Positions 49,977 through 61,214 of a DNA stretch of 64,000 nt are shown piece by piece. The position numbers and the translations under genes are program-made. The notes below the pieces were generated by a model. It saw nothing but the letters and a program-made list of their open reading frames with translations, was not told where the DNA came from and did not search any database. Location: contig WTGC01000045.1 of the NCBI GenBank assembly GCA_011523705.1, positions 11,508 to 75,507 on the forward strand, written 5' to 3'. The stretch's first letter is position 1; the number at the start of each line of letters is the position of its first letter. Origin of the DNA: Chloroflexota bacterium (GTDB lineage Bacteria; Chloroflexota; Anaerolineae; Aggregatilineales; Phototrophicaceae).

Positions 49977-50864
49977 ATGAAAGCAGACGATTATCAAATG
50001 AGCAAAGTCTTTCTCGGCGGTGGAGATGTCCAATACGTCCTGCCCATCTTCCAGCGAGAAAACGCATGGGAGCAGCCAGATTGGCAGACCCTCATGGACG
50101 ACGTTATTGATACCTATCAGGCCAGCGATGACTCGCGCCACGAACACTTTCTGGGCTCGCTGGTTGTCGGAGACTATCAACAGGTTCTTTGAAGGCGACA
50201 GCCAACTGGCAGCTGCGGGAACCGTGGAACACATTATGCCGCAGATTTTGAGCGCAGAATGGCGGGCGCATCTCGGAGAAACTTGGCAGGATACACATCG
50301 GGAGCTACTTCATACTATCGGCAATCTGACAATCGTCACGCAAAAATGGAATGGGTTGAAGCTCTCAAACAAGCCGTTTTCGCACAATCGCGATGCGCTG
50401 AGCAAACATGGTATTCATCTCAATTCCACTTATTTCGATGGTAAGGTCACGACTTGGAACGCGGACGCAATTCGAGCGCGGACGAACTATCTTGCCGACA
50501 GAATCATCGATGTATGGCCCGCGTTTGCTGCGCAGGAGCCCAAGGGGGAGTCAAAGGAAAAACGCCACAAACGCTGACGGTGCGCGACAAAAGATTCGCC
50601 GTTTACAGTTGGCGTGGCATGGCTCTGGAAATGGTCAACAGACTGCACGATCTTCTGTTACTCTGTGACTTGGAGCGGGCACTTCTCGAATTCGAGTGGT
50701 GGATTACGCAAGATCCGGGCGGGTCAGAGAAGTATTATAAGCAGTCGTCAGATGGCTGGTGGATTCAGCAGAATCTGAGCGCCGAAGACTCCGTTTACTT
50801 CTGCGGAAAGTTGGCCGAGTTCTGTGATTTGGGCGACGATGAATGGAGTTTCACATACGAATAG
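49977..50864 (+). pseudogene. GmrSD-like (DUF262/DUF1524) type IV restriction enzyme remnant
   Basis: There are three fragments in different frames. The first is a DUF262-type N-terminus YVLPIFQRENAWEQPDWQTLMDDV...FLGSLVV, ending at 50192. The second is a DUF1524/HNH-like part TVEHIMPQ...HTIGNLTIVTQKWNGLKLSNKPF (to 50577). The third is a C-terminal part (to 50864). Several hundred aa between the first two are missing. Confidence 0.65.
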
Positions 50865-51033: not shown

Positions 51034-54000
51034 CTACTCGCGATCAACCGCCATCCAGGCGATTAATTGAATCTCATCTTGATCAATCGGCGGCAGGGCA
51101 TCCGGCGCGCGGAAAGGTTGCAGCCCGAGTTCCCGAACTTTTTCGATAATCGCTGCAGAGACCGCCAGGCGATCATCGCTATCCGGCTTGAATGCCTCGC
51201 GGATCGAATTCTCCATTCTCCTTGAAAGCGGCGCTTCGAGCGACTCGACAATCGCGTTGAGGTTTTCCAGCGTCACATCCGGTGGCGGATTGGTCCGCAA
51301 GTGTTGTGCCGCCCGGCGAAGCAGTGAACTGACTTTGGGCTGTACATTTGCCGGATCGGTGAAGAATGTCCATTCCGCGTGTATATGGTCGCGCGCCTTG
51401 TCCCAGGCGGCATAGGCGCCCAAGCGCATATCTTCCGGTAAATGGCGCTCAGTGTTGGGTTCACAAGTGACGAGACGCAAGCAGCCCAAGCGATCACTGA
51501 TGATGTCCCCGCAATCAGCGGGAACAAAGCGCAGATACGGTGTGTCGCCGATCCTGGCGCAAAAAAAGTGGCCTCTGCGCTGACCTTTGAAGCCGGAGCC
51601 GGCTGCCCATGGGAGCGAAGTGAGTTCTTCACCGTAGTCATCTAGTCCTTGGCGGAGCTCTTGGCGATATTCTTCGCCAGAGTAGGCGTTTGCGCCCTCG
51701 CCGTTATTCTCCAGCAGGCCAGCCTCTTCGCGCCTGAGCGCATCAATTTGCTCGCGGGTTTCCGTGAAGACTCGCTGACTGACGGCGCCCTCGGGGATGA
51801 CCTCGTCTTCAACACCGATGGACCTGGCAGCCTGCTCCAGCTTGGCGCGAATGCGTTCTTCGAGCGAGAGCAAGGCATCCAACTCGCGATCGGGGAAGAA
51901 ACAGCGAATGAAAACATCGAGGTGGGGACTGCCAATTCGGTTTATGCGGCCGTTCCGCTGGACCAGACGCATGGGATTCCATGGCAAATCGTAGTTGATG
52001 ATGTGCCGGCATTGCTGAAGGTTCTCGCCTTCGGCGAGCACGTCGGTAGTGATCAAGATATCGAAGCGATCGGACTGATTCGGCGCGTGCGTTGAGCGCG
52101 GCACAAATCCAAATACAGCGTCGCGGCGGTTGATTTTGTGCTGCTGCTCGCTCGACGACACCGAGACAACACGCCCGCTATAAGCCGCCAAGCGAGGATC
52201 GGTTTCGACCGCGCCGAAGAGAAACTTCTCAATCCAGCCGACGGTATCGGAAAAGTAGCAGAAGATGACGACCTTTCGTTTATCCACACTCTCCTGTTCG
52301 TTGATGGCTTCCCGTTCCGCTTCGGCGGCGATTTCCGCAAGTTCCTCAACCAGCTGTTCCAATTTGGGATCGTTCTCGCGCTGCACTTGAAATGCTCTCT
52401 CTGACAAGCGGCGCAATATGTCCCGATCCAGCTCGATATCGCGGCGCAGATCCGCCTCTCGGTACAGCTCAATCGGTTCCGAGCCGGCGACTGCCAATAG
52501 TTCTTCCAGCGCTTCATCATTATCGATTTCGCCCCAGTCACCCAGCGCTTTGGAGTTGGGGACAACACCCCGGTCCATCGCAGCCAGGAATTGGTCGTGC
52601 GAATCCGCCATGCGCTTGGCTGTGCGGGCAAAGGCATTTACCGAAGACTCGAAACGCTTGAGCAGGCCGGAGCGGAGCAGGCCGACCAAGGCGGCTTCCC
52701 GCTGATTGATTTCCGGGTCGGGTTCATGCCGGTAGCGCGATGGCCAGTAACGAGCCAAGGTCAGTTTCGGATCGCCTTCAACGGGCGCCAACGCCTCTGC
52801 GAAGTCATCGAAAAAGCCTGGCAGCACCGCATCCAGGCTGTACTCCACTTGTTTGACTTTGGGTTCGGGAAAACGAATGACCTGGCCACCCATGCCTGGG
52901 ATCGGTTCGTTGGGATAATACTTCTTGATGAAGTGGCGGGTGCGCCGGACTGTCGTCTCGTCCAGCACATCGAATAGCGTATCGGGTCGCAAGTCGGAAG
53001 GGTTTTGGTCCGTGGCGGACTTAAAGCGCCCCCGAAGCGACCGTATGCCCTGGCTCGCGAAGGCGGCATCGTGCCCGACAAAATAGGACAGCAGGTTGTA
53101 CAAATCCCAGAGCGAATTATTGACCGGCGTGGCGGTCATCAGCACCAGTTTCTTTGGCGGATGCCCCTGCAGCATCCGGCGCAAGGCGCGCACATAAGTC
53201 GTATCCGGATTGCGCAGGGCGTGCGCTTCGTCAATGACGATCATCTGGTAGTCATTGACGGGGAAGCGCAGGTTCGTATTGCCGCTGCCGCCGAGCGCGG
53301 GCAATTCAGCAAACTCTTGATAGGACAGCGCCTCGAATTGCATACTGTACTGATTCTTGAACCAGTCCCAGGCGCCATCGCGCAGAACGGCGGGCGCGAT
53401 CAGAAGCACGCGCTGACGCTGTTCATAGACGATATCACGGATGAGTTCGCCGCCGATGAAGGTTTTGCCCAAGCCGACGCCATCAGCGATGATCACGCCA
53501 TTGTAGTTTTCAAGAATGCGGCGGGCGCGGAATAAGCCATCATTCTGAAAGCTGGTCAGCTCCAACTCATTCGCTTTCTTGGCCGCCTGTTCTTGACGCA
53601 GCTCGTCACCGTAGAGTTCATACAGCACACGCAAGTAAATCAGGTAGGGGTCATAAGGCAAGAAGCGCGCTTCATAGATGGCCGCCAGATCGTAGTCTTC
53701 CGATTCTGCCCACAGCTCTTCAAACCAGGCGGCGACTTGATTGACCACGCGCGGTTCATAATGCCCGAGATTGAGTTCTCGGTTTGATGTGAGCCCGGCA
53801 GGCGTCAGGTTCGACGAGCCGGCGATGACGCCTTCTCCCTCGCCCTCATGGCCACTGAAGAGATAGGCTTTGCCGTGCAAGAAGCCATGACTGTAGCGGC
53901 GCACTTCGATCTTGTCAGAGGCGAGGAAGTCGAGCAGCTTCTGAATGGTCTCATCCACTTCTTGCGAGAAGCCGAGGATATCACGGTCTTCACGCAGGCC

Positions 54001-54318
54001 GCTCTCCACCGCTTTGAGCGCGGCATTGATGCGCTGCGCCTGATATGCCGGTCCGCGTTTGTCGCCTGGTTTGCGGCGCGGGATTTTCGGCGGAGCAGTC
54101 GGTTCGGCGCCGAGCAGGAGACGCACACCTTTGGTCTCTCGCAGTTGATCAGCCAGCAGGGCGAGAGCAGCGGGGTGGAAATAACCGGTGGCGATATCGA
54201 CGGATACCGGCTCTTTGTAGGTATCGGCGAGCCAGTTCAGATGACCGCGCAGCGCCGCCACCATCTCGCGGCCTTCGCGGTTGTCGATGAATTCGGGGCG
54301 ATTGAAGTTGTCGCTCAC
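51034..54318 (-). CDS. HKD (phospholipase-D-like) nuclease domain fused to SNF2-family helicase/translocase
   Basis: The GTG start overlaps the upstream TGA (GTGA). Single HKD motif FLHGKAYLF...IAGSSNLT (53809-53877). Helicase motifs ADGVGLGKT (53461-53481), VIDEAH (53221-53232), LMTATPVNN and helicase-C PWNPMRLVQRNGRINRIGS. The roughly 290-aa C-terminal region has no motif I recognise. Confidence 0.9.
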   Translation of the reverse strand: MSDNFNRPEFIDNREGREMVAALRGHLNWLADTYKEPVSVDIATGYFHPAALALLADQLRETKGVRLLLGAEPTAPPKIPRRKPGDKRGPAYQAQRINAALKAVESGLREDRDILGFSQEVDETIQKLLDFLASDKIEVRRYSHGFLHGKAYLFSGHEGEGEGVIAGSSNLTPAGLTSNRELNLGHYEPRVVNQVAAWFEELWAESEDYDLAAIYEARFLPYDPYLIYLRVLYELYGDELRQEQAAKKANELELTSFQNDGLFRARRILENYNGVIIADGVGLGKTFIGGELIRDIVYEQRQRVLLIAPAVLRDGAWDWFKNQYSMQFEALSYQEFAELPALGGSGNTNLRFPVNDYQMIVIDEAHALRNPDTTYVRALRRMLQGHPPKKLVLMTATPVNNSLWDLYNLLSYFVGHDAAFASQGIRSLRGRFKSATDQNPSDLRPDTLFDVLDETTVRRTRHFIKKYYPNEPIPGMGGQVIRFPEPKVKQVEYSLDAVLPGFFDDFAEALAPVEGDPKLTLARYWPSRYRHEPDPEINQREAALVGLLRSGLLKRFESSVNAFARTAKRMADSHDQFLAAMDRGVVPNSKALGDWGEIDNDEALEELLAVAGSEPIELYREADLRRDIELDRDILRRLSERAFQVQRENDPKLEQLVEELAEIAAEAEREAINEQESVDKRKVVIFCYFSDTVGWIEKFLFGAVETDPRLAAYSGRVVSVSSSEQQHKINRRDAVFGFVPRSTHAPNQSDRFDILITTDVLAEGENLQQCRHIINYDLPWNPMRLVQRNGRINRIGSPHLDVFIRCFFPDRELDALLSLEERIRAKLEQAARSIGVEDEVIPEGAVSQRVFTETREQIDALRREEAGLLENNGEGANAYSGEEYRQELRQGLDDYGEELTSLPWAAGSGFKGQRRGHFFCARIGDTPYLRFVPADCGDIISDRLGCLRLVTCEPNTERHLPEDMRLGAYAAWDKARDHIHAEWTFFTDPANVQPKVSSLLRRAAQHLRTNPPPDVTLENLNAIVESLEAPLSRRMENSIREAFKPDSDDRLAVSAAIIEKVRELGLQPFRAPDALPPIDQDEIQLIAWMAVDRE

Positions 54319-57300
54319 AGCCGCGCCTCCCAGTCGTGGAAGTGTTCCAGCACGGCGTTGAGCCGCTCGTGATAATCCCAGCCGAGATGGAAAGTGGCGA
54401 AGATATGCGTCAGCTGATCGGCGTTGAGGCCGTAAAGATGGGCGACTACGGCATCCAGCTCGAAGATCATGTCGTCTTTGGCGTCGTCGTCGAGGGGCCC
54501 GTGGTCGACGCCGACGGCAGCCGCCCAGTCGGCGTAATCCTCGTTGACCGCCGCAAGTCTGCCGGACAGAGCCACCATCCGCCGCCAGAGGGGGTTCTCG
54601 CGGGCAGGCCGAGGCACGGGAAGCGCGTTGACAATGTGTGGGTCCATATTTAGTTCTACAAAACGACGAGCATACCAGTCAAACGGCTTTGAGGACATAA
54701 TACCAAGCAGGTATGCCTCAAACTTTTCGTCACCGTTTCGTACAAGAATCAGTTGCGCACCATGCTGTGCGATCACGTTTGGTGGAATCAGCGCTACGAT
54801 TGTTGTGCGAGTATTGGTGCGATTTGTAATTTGCCTATATGCAATTCTCGGTTTGCACGCAGGGTAAGTGCGAGCATTCTTTGCCCATGTTTTGCTCATT
54901 CTGTAGAATGCCGACGTCTTGTATCTGATTCCACGCATTCTCTTTTTCAATAGGCGTTTGAATACAGTCTGTGGTTTTGCCCAAGCATAGTAGGTATCTG
55001 CGCCCTTATCGGGTTCCCAGATATCGAATGACTTGCCTGCAAAGACTGGCCACCAACCATCTTCAGGCTCGTCAGAATCTTCCATATATTTCTTATCGTT
55101 TTTCGCATGTAGGTCAATGTAGACCCGCACATAACATCCTGCCTCGTCAACCTCGTCGAAGTTGGGCGATAAACTCATCTGAACCATCGCTGGTAAAGAG
55201 TTCGTTTCAGGGAGAAGCGGAACGGTTGCAGCTTCAGTCCAACCGTATAGAGTTTCCAGCTCTAACTCAATCGCTTCGTTGCGCAAAACATCACAATAGT
55301 GAGCGTAGCTAGAACAAGGGCCTGCCCGCAAAGGAATGATACTGTGAGACTGTGATCTGGTCTTCTGAACTGCAACTAGCGCCATTGTGTATCGGTGTTC
55401 GGCATCGTCGAAAACCCATCCCCCGGAGTTCAGGAGAAAAGTCAAGTCTCTTACGGTCCCTTTGTCGAAAATTGTTTTCCGAAAACTCGCAGTCCCTTTG
55501 GTAGCGAATGCGGAACGAGGCAACACCACACCTAATCGTCCGTGAGGCCTATTGACCAAGTCCCAGAATCGCCAAACAAAGCCCTTGTAAAGATCAGGAT
55601 CGCCTTTACCCATTCCTGGGAACGGGCCAGTTACCAGAACATTCCGCACCAAGTCTGTTTCGGCAAGCTCCTGTACCATTCGACTCACTAAGTCAGGACG
55701 CTGATCACGCTGCTGTGAAATAATCCGATTGCGTACACTTGCGCTCTTTCCATGTAAGCCGGGCGTGTACCGTGCCCAAAAGCGATGTTCTTCTAGTTTC
55801 GCCTTTTCCCAGGGTGGATTCCCCAGAATCACATCAAAGCCGGCCCGCTCGCGCAGGAAGACCTGCGGGAAGGCGATGGGGAAGTGGAAGGGCGGTGTCG
55901 CTTTCAGCGCATTCTTCGCCACTTTGTGCGGCACTGAGTTGGACAGTTGATGCCGCGCTTCCGCAGCGATCCAATTGACCAGCTCACCCTCGTTGAGCTG
56001 TTTCTGTAAGTCCACCTCCAAACGCGATGCCGTCAGAATATCGAAGAGCGCCGAAGTTGGCGCCAGCAACTCGCGCGCCGCCTCGTAGGCAGCACGAGCC
56101 TCTTTGATCTGCGACGCGTCAGCATCCGCCAGCCGCGCAATTCTGTCCAATTGCTCTTGGGCGTCACCGAGCAAGCTCATGGCGTTGAAGGTCCAGAGTG
56201 GATAACCCTCGGCGAGAATGTCTTTGGCTTCCTGAATGGTGGCGATGCCGACGAGAGAGTTACCGCAGACAAGATTGTAATCAAGCAAGGACAGCGGTAG
56301 ACCGGGCACGAAGGTATGCACCCAGATCGAAAGCCGCGCCAACTCGACCGCCAGCGGGTTGAGATCGACGCCGTAGACGCAGCGCCGCGCGATCTGTCGG
56401 CGCAGCAGTTGCGTGTCATCAAATGTTTGGCTTTCGCCATAGTCCGCCAGGATTTCAAGCGCGTGTTCGCGCAGCCGCGCCAGCTCGTTGGTCACATCGG
56501 GTATGGGACTGTCTGCCAGATATGTCGAAAAGCGCTTCTCGATCCGGTCGATGGCGGCGACCAGGAAATGCCCCGAGCCCATGGCGATATCAGCGACGCG
56601 GAAGTCGAAGAAATCGTCGCTGGTGGCGCTTTCGCCGAGCTCCTTCAGACGTGCCAGGTGGTCATCCAACGCCGGCTCCAACGCGTGATTCAGCAGGTGC
56701 TCAACGGCGAAGCTCTTGGTGTAGTAGGAGCCGGTCGCCTTGCGCTTGCCAGAGGCGTTGTGCAAGTAGATCTCGCCTTCGCGGACAACGATGCGACTTT
56801 CGCGTGTCTCCGGCACGTACAAGCCGTCTTTGCCCAAACCGAGATCAGTCTGCGCCAGCGAAAGCTCACTCTGCAGCAAACCTTCGTAGATGGTGCCGAA
56901 CTCCCGAACGCTCAAGCTGCGGAAATCAACAGGTCCAGGTATTCCGTCAAGCGTCTCGTCAATCAACAGTTTGTTCAGGATGGGTCCGAATTGCTTGTCG
57001 CTCAGTGAGATGTCCTTGATGGCTGCGCCAACGGGCGCGTTAGCCGGATCGGAATCGAATAAGCCACCGTTGTAGGGCGGAATGCCCAAACCGTGGTTGC
57101 CACGGTCAATGGCGCCGAACAGATCCTTCACGCGATTCCACAGCAATGGAGCATCGTCAAAGGGCGTCCGTTTCCGCTCTCTTTCGAGCAACTGTTGCGC
57201 TCTCAAGTTGAGCGAGTAGTCTTCGTATTCATTATTCGTCCGATATGGCAGCAAATTCTTGTCTTCGGCATAGGCGATGAAGAGCAGCCGGAACAATACC

Positions 57301-58373
57301 GTCAGCGCCATCTGATAAGTAAGATCAAGCGCCTCCCTGTCTGCGGCGATCATGCCGCGCGATTCGGCGATGGACTCCGCTAGACCCGGAATAACGTCTT
57401 CGTAGATCCGATTGCGCAGGCGGGTACCGAGGTCAGTGGCGTATTGGCGCGAATCGGCGAGCACTTCGCTGAACGTGCCGTTGGGTTTGAGGGCGTCCGC
57501 GGAGAACAAGAGCCATAAGTAGCCAATTTCGTCGTCCGATAGCAGATCGGGGTGCAATTGGATGAAGGTCTCGCTGCGCCCGCGCTGGCCGACGCCGACG
57601 CCGGTATCCGCCGGGTAGAGACGGATTGCATCATCAGTAGCGGCAATGACGTAAGGCAGCGAATCGTTATCGGCGCGCGCCAGGGCGGCTTCGATGGGAC
57701 TGCGATTGCCAAAGCGTTCGCTGCGGCTATTGACAGTCTCGCCCTGGTTGAGGAATACGGCGATCGCCAGCGCTTTGTCGGCGGCTCGCAGCGCCCACAG
57801 ATTGCCGGTAAGTCTTTCGATGTTGTATCCCAGCTTTTGCAGCAGCGGCCGTTTGCGCTGTCGCCGTAAGGGTCTGCTTCGGCGAACGGATTCCCGCCAG
57901 TCAAGGCGTTGGACGACGCCGTACTCAAGCTCGTGCGTCGCCAGCAGACCTTGATTGAGCACGCCTAGTATTTTGTCACTTGCCTCAGGCAGTGTGTCTT
58001 GGAGAAAACCCAAGGCAGCGTGACGGTCCGGCAGTGCTAGGGCGGATCGACTGATGCGTTCTGCCTTTTCAGCTTCCATGGGCGGGTAAACCGGCAGCTT
58101 CTTCGTATGCGCTGGCGCTACCGGTCCGCAGATTGAAACATTCGCTTGGTCGGGATGCAATGCGACTACGAGGATCGGACTTGCTCGGCCCTCAGATCGC
58201 TTGGTCCATGCGGCGCGCAGGTTTGTTGCCGTTGGGCGCTTATCGGCTTGTACGACGACAACTTCAAGCGGGTTCGGTCCGTCGCCAAACGTGATGCCGA
58301 TTGGGTCGAATTCAATCTCACTCGAATACGTCGGCGGCAGCGCGCGTAATTCCAAGTCTGAAAGAAAGACCAT
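54315..58373 (-). CDS. large gamma-class N6-adenine DNA methyltransferase with specificity domain (MmeI/Eco57I/BREX-PglX-like architecture)
   Basis: ATG at 58373 (GAGG 10 nt upstream); the track start is TTG 58379. Helical FRLLFIAYAED and NGGLF segments, then GSYYTK, motif I DIAMGSGHFL (56562-56591), CGNSLVG, a long helical insert, motif IV NPPW (55809-55820), and a roughly 490-aa TRD-like C-terminus. The first 340 aa or so have no recognisable nuclease triad. Confidence 0.9.
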   Translation of the reverse strand: MVFLSDLELRALPPTYSSEIEFDPIGITFGDGPNPLEVVVVQADKRPTATNLRAAWTKRSEGRASPILVVALHPDQANVSICGPVAPAHTKKLPVYPPMEAEKAERISRSALALPDRHAALGFLQDTLPEASDKILGVLNQGLLATHELEYGVVQRLDWRESVRRSRPLRRQRKRPLLQKLGYNIERLTGNLWALRAADKALAIAVFLNQGETVNSRSERFGNRSPIEAALARADNDSLPYVIAATDDAIRLYPADTGVGVGQRGRSETFIQLHPDLLSDDEIGYLWLLFSADALKPNGTFSEVLADSRQYATDLGTRLRNRIYEDVIPGLAESIAESRGMIAADREALDLTYQMALTVLFRLLFIAYAEDKNLLPYRTNNEYEDYSLNLRAQQLLERERKRTPFDDAPLLWNRVKDLFGAIDRGNHGLGIPPYNGGLFDSDPANAPVGAAIKDISLSDKQFGPILNKLLIDETLDGIPGPVDFRSLSVREFGTIYEGLLQSELSLAQTDLGLGKDGLYVPETRESRIVVREGEIYLHNASGKRKATGSYYTKSFAVEHLLNHALEPALDDHLARLKELGESATSDDFFDFRVADIAMGSGHFLVAAIDRIEKRFSTYLADSPIPDVTNELARLREHALEILADYGESQTFDDTQLLRRQIARRCVYGVDLNPLAVELARLSIWVHTFVPGLPLSLLDYNLVCGNSLVGIATIQEAKDILAEGYPLWTFNAMSLLGDAQEQLDRIARLADADASQIKEARAAYEAARELLAPTSALFDILTASRLEVDLQKQLNEGELVNWIAAEARHQLSNSVPHKVAKNALKATPPFHFPIAFPQVFLRERAGFDVILGNPPWEKAKLEEHRFWARYTPGLHGKSASVRNRIISQQRDQRPDLVSRMVQELAETDLVRNVLVTGPFPGMGKGDPDLYKGFVWRFWDLVNRPHGRLGVVLPRSAFATKGTASFRKTIFDKGTVRDLTFLLNSGGWVFDDAEHRYTMALVAVQKTRSQSHSIIPLRAGPCSSYAHYCDVLRNEAIELELETLYGWTEAATVPLLPETNSLPAMVQMSLSPNFDEVDEAGCYVRVYIDLHAKNDKKYMEDSDEPEDGWWPVFAGKSFDIWEPDKGADTYYAWAKPQTVFKRLLKKRMRGIRYKTSAFYRMSKTWAKNARTYPACKPRIAYRQITNRTNTRTTIVALIPPNVIAQHGAQLILVRNGDEKFEAYLLGIMSSKPFDWYARRFVELNMDPHIVNALPVPRPARENPLWRRMVALSGRLAAVNEDYADWAAAVGVDHGPLDDDAKDDMIFELDAVVAHLYGLNADQLTHIFATFHLGWDYHERLNAVLEHFHDWEARL

Positions 58374-58813
58374 GCTCAATTGGCCTCGCTGAGAACACTA
58401 TGACTGAGAATAAGCGTTACTGTACCGGTGTTTAGCTTGATCTCACAGTCTTACTCTTCGGCCACACTCACAGAGAGCTGTCCCAAACTCTTTTCAAGCA
58501 CCAGATCGCGGCGTTCGGCGCGGCTGATCCGGCAGACCGTAACCAAACTGGAGGTGCTGACAATTGAAGACTGCGCAAATGGTGTTGCACCGCGTGTGAT
58601 GAAGGTCCTACTTGAGCCGCCGGACGTTCTTCCAGGCCCCGTCAATAGTGCAGAGATTATACCGATCACGAAAGTATCCGGGCCTGAATCACCAATACAC
58701 AACAAATAGCAGTCGCGCCTCTTCGTGGCAAATCAAATCATATCCTGCTGACTCTCCTCATCCACTAGACTTTGCCGCGAGCAGCGCAACTGCCTTCCGG
58801 TAGCGCTTTCAGC

Positions 58814-58891: not shown

Positions 58892-59122
58892 ATGCGCGTG
58901 GTCGACGAATTGAATGACGAGGAGCGTCGGCTATTGCGCCAGCATATTGACCAGCGCTCCGAAAAGCCGGCTCGGTTGACACCAAAAGAACGGACGCGGC
59001 GACTCAATGCGGCCTTTGACGCAATGAGCGAAGGCTTGACTCAAGCGCAGCTCGACGAGATGACCGCGGCCATGACAGAAGACTACATCGAACCCTGGGA
59101 TGAGTCCGAACGGACCCAGTGA
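58892..59122 (+). CDS. putative type II antitoxin (VapB-like partner of the PIN gene)
   Basis: 76-aa charged helical ORF. Its stop overlaps the PIN gene start by 4 nt (ATGA-type coupling at 59119-59122). The family is not recognisable from sequence alone. Confidence 0.55.
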   Translation: MRVVDELNDEERRLLRQHIDQRSEKPARLTPKERTRRLNAAFDAMSEGLTQAQLDEMTAAMTEDYIEPWDESERTQ

Positions 59123-59532
59123 TCTATATCCTGGACATCAACGTTATTGCCGACCGCTTTAATCGCTTACCGCAAGTCCTTGACCGCTTGAACCGCGTCG
59201 GCGAAGCTGGGCACGTCTTGGGCCCGTGTGATCCAGTCCGGTATGAAGTCTTGCGCGGATTGCTCAAAGTCATTGCCACGCAGAAATTCCGTTTTTTCCA
59301 CGAAACAATTATGCCCTTGATGGATCGCCTGGCGCTGATCGATGACGATTGACAAGTGGCCGCCCGATTATTGGCGACCATGCGGAATCAGGGGAAACAA
59401 TTCTCCGATGTCGATCCACTCATTGCTGTCTTAGCCCAGCGTTTGAACGCGGTTGCGGTGACAGGTGATGACGACTTCGCAGCACTATCGATCCAGCGCG
59501 AAAACTGGGCACTGCCCCATAAATGTCTATGA
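59119..59532 (+). pseudogene. vapC: PIN-domain (VapC-like) toxin with in-frame TGA
   Basis: MIYILDINVIADRF... reaches an in-frame TGA at 59350-59352. The same frame continues for 59 more codons (QVAARLLATMRNQGKQFSDVDPLIAVLAQRLNAVAVTGDDDFAAL...) to TGA at 59530-59532. PIN-type acidic positions lie on both sides of the stop. Confidence 0.65.
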
Positions 59533-60347: not shown

Positions 60348-61214
60348 GTGGATTCTAAACACGGCTGGTGGAGACAGCATTTACGTTTTCGCCAACATGC
60401 TGGAGGGGCGCCCTGGGACAAATCCAGGTATCGCGTCTTATTCGAGGAGATGGAGAACCAGCAGGCGGACCGCTGGCAAACTTTCCCGATTCTGGCTACT
60501 GCCACCGAGAAGGGCAAATACCTGACCATCATTTCCTTGCAGGCGCCAGCGCCGGACGCTAGGCCGGACAGAGCGCCGGAACTGGAGAATCTGTGGGAAG
60601 TATACGGCCCGCGCTGGTGGAGCGTGTTGCATTCGCTGGGCGCCGAGGACACCATCGTCTTCGATATCGAGACCACCGGGACAGAAACGGATCTGGATGA
60701 GGCAGTATCCATCGCCTTGCGCAGCTACGCGTCGCCGTCTAGCGCGCCGGTCAAGTATCACAGCCTGATCGCGCCGCGTTTTCCGGAAAAGCTGCTTGAG
60801 CGGAATGCGAAGGGGGAGTGCGCCTACAACATCCATGGCATCCACCCGAGCGATCTGGCGGGTCAGCCGCCCTTCCCGGCCGTGCACCAGGCGCTGTGGG
60901 AGATCATGTGGGAGAAGAACTGGGTGTGCTGGAACACCGACTTTGATGTGGCGCTGCTGGACAGCCTCTGCCTGCGCCACCACCTGCCGCTGATCCCGCG
61001 CAAGCGGGTGCTGTGTGCGATGAGGCTGTTGTCGCCACTGGCGGGCAAGTGGGACGCGGGCCACAGCGCCTACCGCAAGGCGAAGCTGGAGGAGATGGCG
61101 CAGGTGATGGGCATGGCCTTTCCCGACGCCCACGATGCGGCGGCCGATGTCAAAATGACGATTGCAGTGATGCGCTGGGCTTACGCCGAGGCGCATAAGC
61201 GGGCGCGTGTCTGA
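60348..61214 (+). CDS. DnaQ-like DEDDh 3'-5' exonuclease with extra N-terminal region
   Basis: Exo I TIVFDIETTG, Exo II-like WNTDFDVALL and Exo III HDAAADVKMT motifs. A better start (ATG 60286 after AGGAGAAGG; MAIDVKVIKVTRSENRYGKPMWILNTAGGDSIYVFANMLEG) is in another frame. It would join this ORF if the G4 run at 60405-60408 had one more G. Confidence 0.7.
   Translation: MDSKHGWWRQHLRFRQHAGGAPWDKSRYRVLFEEMENQQADRWQTFPILATATEKGKYLTIISLQAPAPDARPDRAPELENLWEVYGPRWWSVLHSLGAEDTIVFDIETTGTETDLDEAVSIALRSYASPSSAPVKYHSLIAPRFPEKLLERNAKGECAYNIHGIHPSDLAGQPPFPAVHQALWEIMWEKNWVCWNTDFDVALLDSLCLRHHLPLIPRKRVLCAMRLLSPLAGKWDAGHSAYRKAKLEEMAQVMGMAFPDAHDAAADVKMTIAVMRWAYAEAHKRARV

Follow-up and report, generated by a model that had tools for sequence, protein, structure and literature searches.

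The question raised by the locus described here, from the genome of a Chloroflexota bacterium, is whether two overlapping genes, one for a large DNA methylase and one for a nuclease fused to an SNF2-type ATPase, form a single restriction-modification (R-M) system, and how such a system would relate to those already named. The locus lies in a stretch of 64,000 nucleotides, called the window in the following (GenBank assembly GCA_011523705.1, contig WTGC01000045.1, positions 11,508–75,507 of the forward strand), and all coordinates count from its first letter. A previous reading made from the letters of this stretch without database searches (the sequence-only reading) had described the pair as a two-gene defense candidate, with methylase and target recognition assigned to one chain and both nuclease and translocase to the other. 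The domain content of the two proteins supports this partition. We consider it probable that the pair is a two-subunit ATP-dependent R-M system, composed of a Mod-like methylase and specificity subunit and a Res-like PLD–SNF2 subunit; the interaction of the two, the licensing of one by the other, translocation, the mode of cleavage and antiphage activity are what we infer from domain content and gene order.

Two Intact and Overlapping Genes

Both open reading frames (ORFs) lie on the minus strand, at 54315–58379 and 51034–54318, and these frames, every motif coordinate and the GTGA at 54315–54318 in which stop and start overlap translate as the sequence-only reading had given them (table 1). 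The length of 1354 residues that it gave for the methylase is correct for a start at the TTG at 58379, but the start is likely the ATG at 58373, because the resulting 1352 residues equal the length of a database protein with 100% identity (P0121). The PLD–SNF2 protein also has a database counterpart with 100% identity (P0001). Homologues of the two proteins number in the thousands in a database search, and both frames are therefore real genes rather than chance ORFs. Neither gene is disrupted and all of the catalytic motifs are invariant among family members, so that both proteins look active.

The Shine-Dalgarno-like GGGAGG at the junction sits within the methylase gene, 7 nucleotides ahead of the GTG of the helicase, which together with the GTGA overlap makes translational coupling plausible; an overlapping stop and start in this mod-then-res order would couple the production of both subunits. 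A scan for promoters and terminators gave a number of sites not above chance.

Table 1. Features of the Methylase and PLD–SNF2 Locus and Its Flanks, in Window Coordinates
Feature	Position	Strand	Details
Methylase/specificity gene	54315..58373	-	1352 residues from ATG 58373; Pfam Eco57I, PADLOC REase_MTase_IIG
Family-specific N-terminal domain, residues 1 to ~340	57354..58373	-	Two alpha/beta subdomains; AlphaFold model
Helical region, residues ~341-520	56814..57353	-	FRLLFIAYAED at residue 361, NGGLF at residue 435
Gamma-class N6-adenine methyltransferase core, residues ~521-900	55674..56813	-	SYYT, motif I DIAMGSGHFL (56562-56591), helical insert, motif IV NPPW (55809-55820)
C-terminal target-recognition region, residues ~901-1352	54318..55673	-	Hypervariable core, residues 1001-1100, at 55074-55373
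Gene junction	54315..54331	-	GGGAGG 54326-54331, 7-nucleotide spacer, GTG 54316-54318 overlapping TGA 54315-54317
PLD nuclease-SNF2 ATPase fusion gene	51034..54318	-	1094 residues; proposed Res-like restriction subunit
PLD-family nuclease domain, residues 39-203	53710..54204	-	Single HKD motif H148-x-K150...G167-S-S-N170 (53809-53877)
SNF2-type ATPase core, residues ~250-800	51919..53571	-	GLGKT 282, DEAH 363 (53221-53232), TATPVNN 395, Helicase_C 676-796, QRNGRINRIG 787
Conserved helicase C-terminal domain, residues ~906-1094	51037..51603	-	Beta-meander and helical bundle; invariant C920, C946, C952, W972, T987-D-P989
GmrSD remnant	50020..50577	+	C-terminal HNH/DUF1524 part only; Pfam GmrSD_C 6e-20, 185-residue ORF
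VapB-like	58892..59122	+	Intact 76-residue antitoxin-like ORF, overlaps PIN gene by 4 nucleotides
PIN/VapC-like	59119..59532	+	In-frame TGA at 59350-59352

Conserved Pairing across Bacteria and Archaea

One genome per species was scanned for relatives of the helicase, giving at least 599 stretches, and the best 79 loci were kept for a synteny survey, in which a locus counted as evaluable if the helicase was at least 33% identical and near full length and at least 4.5 kb of upstream DNA was present (n = 49). A near-full-length methylase homologue lies directly upstream and on the same strand in 46 of the 49, 45 of them recognized by script and one by inspection (L007, where the filter of the script missed a clearly present methylase). 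The exceptions are L004 with a partial methylase match, L056 with an interrupted helicase gene, and L063, which belongs to a more distant subfamily. The same order was seen in five further loci, on Halorubrum lacusprofundi plasmid pHLAC01, Rhodococcus erythropolis plasmid pCRE138, and three IMG/VR contigs. The carriers belong to the Planctomycetota, Acidobacteriota, Gemmatimonadota, Actinomycetota, Chloroflexota, Pseudomonadota, Nitrososphaerota (ammonia-oxidizing archaea), and Halobacteria, with Halorubrum lacusprofundi ATCC 49239 (pHLAC01), Rhodococcus erythropolis R138 (pCRE138), Mycobacterium gallinarum, and Euzebya pacifica as cultured representatives. The pair is a conserved, co-inherited module that spans at least seven phyla of bacteria and archaea, and the neighborhood of the two genes that had been noticed at a single locus extends to most of the related loci surveyed. 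Only three full-length members of the family were found in IMG/VR, and the system is therefore essentially one of cells or plasmids.

The two proteins also diverge together: in the 50 loci in which both genes are close to full length, their identities to the window copies fall in parallel (Spearman 0.78, p 4e-11). The gap between the genes in these 50 loci is at most 100 bp, including overlaps, in 31, between 100 and 500 bp in 3, and more than 500 bp in 16. The cargo between the genes of the latter 16 varies and includes AlbA_2 with HATPase_c_4, an ImmA/M78 peptidase with DUF4411, HNH, Uma2, and toxin–antitoxin pairs (L005, 8164–9933; L011, 7099–8631; L029, 8282–9493; L045, 8207–9995; L066, 8398–10014; L050, 9380–9967). 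These inserted genes differ from genome to genome, and we reject them as a third component; when all ORFs of the 79 loci were clustered, nothing recurred apart from the two genes and the shadow ORFs antisense to them, and no third conserved gene emerged. Hitch-hiker genes often occur inside Type I R-M operons, and the junction between methylase and helicase looks like an insertion hotspot of the same kind.

It should be noted that the helicase of L056 (10001–14920) is broken by an inserted segment of ~1.6 kb and that of L053 is truncated to residues 390–1091, and that both loci are without a methylase, which suggests that the pair decays together. L063 and L076, both from Ktedonobacterales, encode a helicase subfamily of 33–34% identity which is without the last ~130 residues of the query; their Eco57I-type methylase is weakly similar and lies 1.4–5 kb upstream rather than adjacent, and the organization of these loci may be different.

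A Methylase without a Recognizable Nuclease

The Pfam domain Eco57I spans residues 667–864 of the methylase, and in an alignment of 41 mutually diverse members D595, M598, G599, S600, and F603 of motif I as well as N852, P853, and P854 of motif IV are invariant. The helical region with FRLLFIAYAED and NGGLF, whose columns are strongly conserved in the family alignments, is of the type that precedes the catalytic core of Eco57I, MmeI, and PglX-type enzymes. Behind the core, residues 1001–1100 share only 31–39% identity with the three closest homologues, compared with 80–90% elsewhere in the protein, and the tblastn alignment of the methylase ends near residue 1003 in several loci. Such hypervariability is the usual signature of a specificity-swapping target-recognition domain, which residues 1001–1100 are predicted to form the core of.

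The N-terminal 340 residues were found to contain no Pfam domain. An AlphaFold model of this part is of high confidence (pLDDT 91, from the predicted local distance difference test) and shows two alpha/beta subdomains, for which a Foldseek search of the PDB returned no neighbor at E ≤ 1e-3 (best E 0.009). The alignment of 41 members shows neither a conserved D...(D/E)xK nor a conserved lysine in this part; its conserved polar residues are E37, R59, N140, E212, R220, and R251. With no Pfam match, no significant structural neighbor and no conserved nuclease motif, the methylase chain has no recognizable endonuclease. The domain is specific to this family, in which 726 clusters at 50% identity contain it; full-length matches have it at the N-terminus of proteins of ~1310–1430 residues. 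Two representatives depart from this, as the domain begins at residue 345 or 169 in P0242 (712 residues) and P0299 (1023 residues); the offset could be an extra N-terminal fusion or an artefact of gene calling. We propose that the domain serves in docking of the partner or in regulation. Searches of the PDB with the methylase sequence and with its family profile gave nothing at E ≤ 0.01, so that MmeI, LlaBIII, and all other PDB entries are undetectable by sequence with the profile of this family.

An SNF2 ATPase Carrying a Single HKD Nuclease

On the second protein, Pfam identifies PLDc_2 (1.5e-13), RE_NgoFVII (1e-4), SNF2-rel_dom, ResIII, and Helicase_C, which, along with Eco57I on the methylase, confirms the domains read from the motifs. 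The nuclease domain has the HxK(x)nGSxN pattern of PLD nucleases, with H148, G149, K150, G167, S168, S169, and N170 invariant in the family alignment, and this is the sole HxK/GSxN pair in the chain. The ATPase is of the SNF2 type, with motifs I, II, III, and VI and both RecA lobes; GLGKT, DEAH, TATPVNN, and QRNGRINRIG are invariant in the family (Walker A, G282–K285; DEAH, D363/E364). In the PDB the SNF2 core matches RapA, ISWI, and Rad54-like proteins of Sulfolobus by sequence. The sole entry matching across the junction of PLD and helicase is 7clg, over residues 131–420, which we take to be SauUSI, an ATP-dependent PLD restriction enzyme. The C-terminal domain, for which a reader function of the SauUSI kind was considered, is modeled with pLDDT >90 over most of its length, from about residue 914, and has no PDB match (best E 0.44) and no Pfam domain.

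RefSeq lists the methylase as "hypothetical protein" and its partner as "helicase-related protein," and PADLOC assigns the latter to C3a139 "HKD+Snf2" (7e-62) and in part to DrmD (3e-40). C3a139 is a cluster name for HKD+Snf2 neighbors associated with type III CRISPR (PMC6546367).

The SNF2 core raises the question of a role outside defense, in which an SNF2 remodeler and a methylase would act on host DNA as an epigenetic or DNA-repair module. Housekeeping functions are known for SNF2 proteins, among them RapA, to which the C-lobe has its best sequence match in the PDB; the patchy spread over distant phyla and plasmids, the hypervariable recognition segment, the fused nuclease, the defense-type cargo inserted in the operons of relatives, and the GmrSD remnant and toxin–antitoxin pair near the window copy all point away from such a role, and we regard it as the least probable of the explanations considered here.

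Probably Neither Type IIG nor Two Unconnected Systems

The PADLOC model REase_MTase_IIG (PDLC03620), derived from REBASE and described as "Type IIG restriction enzyme-methyltransferase," covers residues 36–1346 of the methylase at E 1.2e-290. The methylase indeed shares with Type IIG/IIL enzymes such as MmeI and Eco57I the order of helical region, gamma-class N6-adenine core, and C-terminal target-recognition domain. These enzymes also carry a PD-(D/E)xK endonuclease in the same polypeptide and have no obligatory partner, whereas the methylase here shows no such endonuclease and, as judged from synteny, appears bound to the PLD–SNF2 gene immediately downstream in 46 of 49 loci and five others. 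The absence of an endonuclease domain and the conserved pairing indicate that the label "Type IIG" is probably a misnomer for this methylase family. An automated pipeline would report a complete one-gene R-M system here and ignore the helicase. The claim of the sequence-only reading that the pair fits no canonical system thus has two sides: the pair satisfies no multigene definition, but PADLOC does return a nominally complete one-gene Type IIG system, which that reading had itself listed as a refutation and which we argue is the wrong label.

Taken at face value, the full-length match to the Type IIG model would allow for two independent neighboring systems, a self-sufficient Type IIG methylase and a stand-alone PLD–SNF2 enzyme, either like SauUSI (Type IV) or like the single-gene helicase–nucleases. 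The layout of PLD, superfamily 2 (SF2) ATPase, and C-terminal domain in the second protein does resemble the single-chain enzyme of PDB 7clg, and the NCBIfam entry "phospholipase D-like domain-containing anti-phage protein" matches it partially. Two unconnected systems would hardly be expected to remain in the same order and on the same strand over at least seven phyla, in many cases with stop and start overlapping, and to diverge together with a rho of 0.78; the methylase, moreover, has no conserved nuclease motif of its own, and it accompanies every intact close homologue of the helicase with enough upstream DNA; among the exceptions, the helicase gene of L056 is interrupted. A modification-dependent nuclease beside an active methylase would furthermore be self-toxic. 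We therefore regard independence of the two genes as very improbable. The likeness to the SauUSI type (7clg, presumably) extends to the single-HKD N-terminal PLD domain, the SF2 ATPase and the extra C-terminal domain in the same order, and to a shared logic of cleavage through PLD dimerization; unlike the pair described here, that type is a stand-alone modification-dependent (Type IV) enzyme without a methylase partner.

Relationship to ATP-Dependent R-M Enzymes

The whole parts list of the pair equals that of Type ISP enzymes (LlaGI, LlaBIII), which are single polypeptides, whereas two ORFs are present here. In comparison with both Type ISP and Type IIG, the nuclease is of the PLD rather than the Mrr/PD-(D/E)xK kind, and SNF2 takes the place of an HsdR-like motor. 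The two-gene mod-then-res order is shared with Type III systems such as EcoP15I, and so is the division of labor, as Mod combines methylase and target recognition and Res combines SF2 ATPase and nuclease. Only this mod–res logic is common to the two: Type III systems consist of a beta-class Mod and a Res with a C-terminal PD-(D/E)xK nuclease, whereas the methylase here is a large gamma-class enzyme of the Eco57I/DrmMI type, the motor is SNF2 and not of the Res helicase family, and the nuclease is an N-terminal PLD domain.

A distant relative provides a further view of the PLD–SNF2 fusion. The Lactococcus PLD–SNF2 proteins that we recovered, from pUL021B and similar plasmids, are ~27% identical to the window protein, and the one with the operon described next matches the PADLOC "HKD+Snf2" model over its full length. 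On Lactococcus lactis pUL021B (L083, 6734–13022) the operon consists of a helix-turn-helix regulator, the PLD–SNF2 protein, DUF4391, and a Type III Mod methylase (MTase_III, 4e-187), with the order of PLD–SNF2 and methylase genes reversed relative to the window pair; this looks like a Type III-like system with PLD–SNF2 in place of Res. As the operon pairs the fusion with a Type III Mod, the PLD–SNF2 architecture serves another methylase class as its restriction partner. The same plasmid region has a second methylase and a DEAD/DEAH helicase after the operon, and its DUF4391 gene has no PADLOC match.

Relationship to DISARM, BREX, and ARMADA

The best named relative of the methylase is DrmMI (PADLOC, 3e-74), which aligns to residues 524–860 only, and that of the helicase is DrmD, over residues 520–866, with BrxHII and DpdE next; for the NCBIfam model DISARM_DrmD (1e-47) the score is 163 bits, where the cut-off is 610. 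The likeness to DISARM class 1 that the sequence-only reading had pointed out is real insofar as DrmMI and DrmD are the closest named relatives, but it is confined to the catalytic cores and falls far below the family cut-offs. DISARM class 1 (DrmD, DrmMI, DrmA, DrmB, DrmC) also includes a PLD nuclease, which is separate there and fused to SNF2 here. Within 10 kb on either side of the pair, on a public contig with identical sequence, no PglZ, BrxC, DrmA, or DUF1998 gene and no second helicase gene was called, in agreement with what had been read from the window itself. DISARM class 1 is ruled out by the absence of DrmA and DrmB/DUF1998 from this neighborhood and from the relatives, along with the limitation of similarity to the catalytic cores.

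BREX/Pgl is likewise ruled out: PglZ and BrxC/PglY are not in the neighborhood, and the BREX PglX models reach 16–27 bits against cut-offs of 400–900. The term "PglX-like" used in the sequence-only reading is therefore loose, as PglX models do match the methylase, but weakly (PADLOC, E 4e-10; NCBIfam, 27 bits with a cut-off of 500). ARMADA consists of the SNF2 protein ArmA, the PglX-like methylase ArmB, the YprA (DUF1998) helicase ArmC, and ArmD (10.1101/2025.09.15.676423). Both ARMADA and BREX type 3 (BrxHII and PglXI) also pair an SNF2 helicase with a large Eco57I-type methylase (10.1101/2025.09.15.676423), but both depend on additional proteins, a YprA/DUF1998 helicase or PglZ/BrxC, and no PLD domain is carried by their SNF2 subunit. 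The YprA-family ArmC is neither in the locus nor conserved in relatives, which rules out ARMADA.

BREX-related type 2 (BR type 2), or Hma-like, systems combine a DUF499 ATPase, DUF3780, an N6-methylase, and an HKD–Snf2 helicase, and the N-terminal HKD nuclease–Swi2/Snf2 fusion has been proposed there as the effector beside a protective N6-methylase (PMC12839542). DUF499 and DUF3780 are absent from the neighborhood and from the relatives, and BR type 2 is ruled out; the methylase here is also of a different, much larger family. Hma itself differs in its partners and in its nuclease, which is of the PD-(D/E)xK kind and C-terminal (PMC11232893), and the PADLOC HmaA match is weak and partial (6e-25).

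The main rival to a cleaving R-M system arises from this comparison. It holds that an SNF2 protein with a large methylase is the part that DISARM, BREX-3, and ARMADA share for sensing and for marking self, and that the pair is a minimal module of this type, made autonomous by the gain of a PLD domain, which blocks phage replication without motif-directed double-strand cleavage, for example by recognition of DNA ends or structures, by nicking, or by a block of replication, with methylation as the mark of self. DrmMI and DrmD as best named matches, followed by BrxHII and DpdE, are in keeping with this, as is the recurrence of SNF2 and PglX-like methylase pairs in DISARM class 1, BREX type 3, and ARMADA (10.1101/2025.09.15.676423; PMC13463889 = 10.1101/2025.09.22.677730). 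The similarity is restricted to the catalytic cores, at 163 bits against the equivalog cut-off of 610; DrmA, DrmB/DUF1998, YprA, PglZ, and BrxC are absent from the locus and from all relatives; and a fused, invariant HKD nuclease together with a hypervariable recognition domain suits a cleaving R-M enzyme. We judge this reading unlikely. The other two rivals, independent systems and a housekeeping role, are poorly supported.

A Proposed Mechanism and the Points against It

In the two-subunit R-M reading that we favor, the Mod-like subunit would recognize a short DNA motif through its C-terminal domain and methylate the copies of the host. On incoming DNA it would locate the unmethylated motif and then recruit or license the SNF2 subunit, with the family-specific N-terminal domain of the methylase, the conserved C-terminal domain of the helicase, or both as likely contact surfaces. 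The SNF2 subunit would translocate along the duplex, powered by ATP hydrolysis, and two PLD domains would pair to cut, either in a standing dimer or on the meeting of two translocating complexes. In PLD nucleases (Nuc, BfiI, and relatives) two HKD motifs make one active site; with a single HKD motif per chain and two needed per active site, cutting would need two nuclease domains to pair, and by this analogy the architecture implies dimerization of the PLD domains.

Three points weigh against this reading. The Foldseek matches of the N-terminal domain of the methylase include proteins of the PD-(D/E)xK fold (CidB, Hjc, SPARDA), nonsignificant at E ≥ 0.009 and a template modeling score (TM) of at most 0.2; we give them no weight, and a cryptic nuclease fold in the methylase chain is a remote possibility. 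Among the top 150 relatives of this domain, the longest of which has 1432 residues, there is no single-chain fusion of methylase and PLD–SNF2, so these relatives offer no Rosetta-stone support for an interaction. Finally, the module could act otherwise than by cleavage at unmethylated sites, as its closest named relatives (DrmMI/DrmD; BrxHII, ArmA/ArmB) belong to systems without a simple cleavage mechanism.

Gene Neighborhood

The same DNA is found on a public metagenome contig of 153 kb, ENA ERZ27234776 k141_2025874, where the pair is flanked by housekeeping genes (ABC transporters, glycoside hydrolases) and the only defense-type neighbors are a 149-residue GmrSD_C remnant and two small genes. 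The two genes thus lie in a small island that housekeeping genes surround and that also holds a GmrSD remnant and a VapBC pair; homologues of the two occur on plasmids. The flanks had been described as a dead GmrSD gene and a VapBC pair, and both are present (50020–50577, with GmrSD_C only; 58892–59532, VapB- and VapC-like). The ORFs just upstream of the remnant contain no DUF262 half of GmrSD, and the GmrSD_C fragment is a decayed defense gene, of a Type IV enzyme, abutting the intact pair. A PIN domain was identified in the VapC-like gene by Pfam (2.5e-07) only when the in-frame TGA is read through, so that this gene is probably a pseudogene, or else a case of read-through or recoding. Past the toxin–antitoxin pair, a gene for an RNase_T/DnaQ-like exonuclease (288-residue ORF, 60348–61214, plus strand) lies beside an AraC-type regulator.

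Prior Descriptions and Significance

The domain arrangement of PLD–SNF2 proteins is already catalogued (cd09178 is presumably the PLD domain of Snf2-like proteins), and the inference of two-protein restriction is in print. For Lactococcus pLd8, orf33 and orf34 were described in 2018 as a methylase classed by REBASE as Type IIG and devoid of a restriction domain, for which restriction would probably come from the adjacent PLD–SNF2 protein, and the domain set was likened to DISARM class 1 (PMC6098607). A survey of programmed inversions from 2023 tabulated adjacent PLD(cd09178)+SNF coding sequences next to Type II R-M coding sequences (PMC9881135). The pLd8 and Cj0031-like loci belong to other lineages and are likened to the window pair by their published description; their arrangement appears in print as a sentence (PMC6098607) or a table row (PMC9881135), without a family survey or experiments. 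In the literature covered, to which most subscription-journal papers do not belong, no paper was found in which this two-gene system is named, surveyed, or tested. The novelty suggested by the sequence-only reading therefore holds for functional work, of which the literature search found none, but not for the arrangement and the inference drawn from it, which were printed in 2018 (PMC6098607) and tabulated in 2023 (PMC9881135). New here are the family-wide synteny over bacteria and archaea, the codivergence of the two proteins, the missing nuclease of the methylase, the two orphan domains, and the hypervariable segment.

These loci number in the hundreds and are either misfiled or unnamed, because in PADLOC and REBASE the methylase passes for a complete Type IIG enzyme and RefSeq leaves both proteins with uninformative names; from the "Type IIG" label one would expect a nuclease, which is missing. 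We see an even balance of chances that the pair represents a distinct and widespread class of ATP-dependent restriction enzyme of bacteria and archaea, in which a Type IIG-like methylase directs a PLD-armed SNF2 translocase of the chromatin-remodeler type and the two orphan domains form a new coupling interface. If confirmed, this would extend the known ATP-dependent R-M enzymes and would add no new principle of immunity. SNF2 motors with PglX/DrmMI-like methylases are the shared and poorly understood core of DISARM class 1, BREX type 3, and ARMADA, and the self-contained pair would, if the reading is true, be the minimal tractable version of this SNF2-plus-methylase module: with two proteins and a built-in nuclease, it would make it simple to study how methylation status reaches an SNF2 translocase, and the same minimal pair would reveal how nucleases with a single HKD motif come together for cutting.

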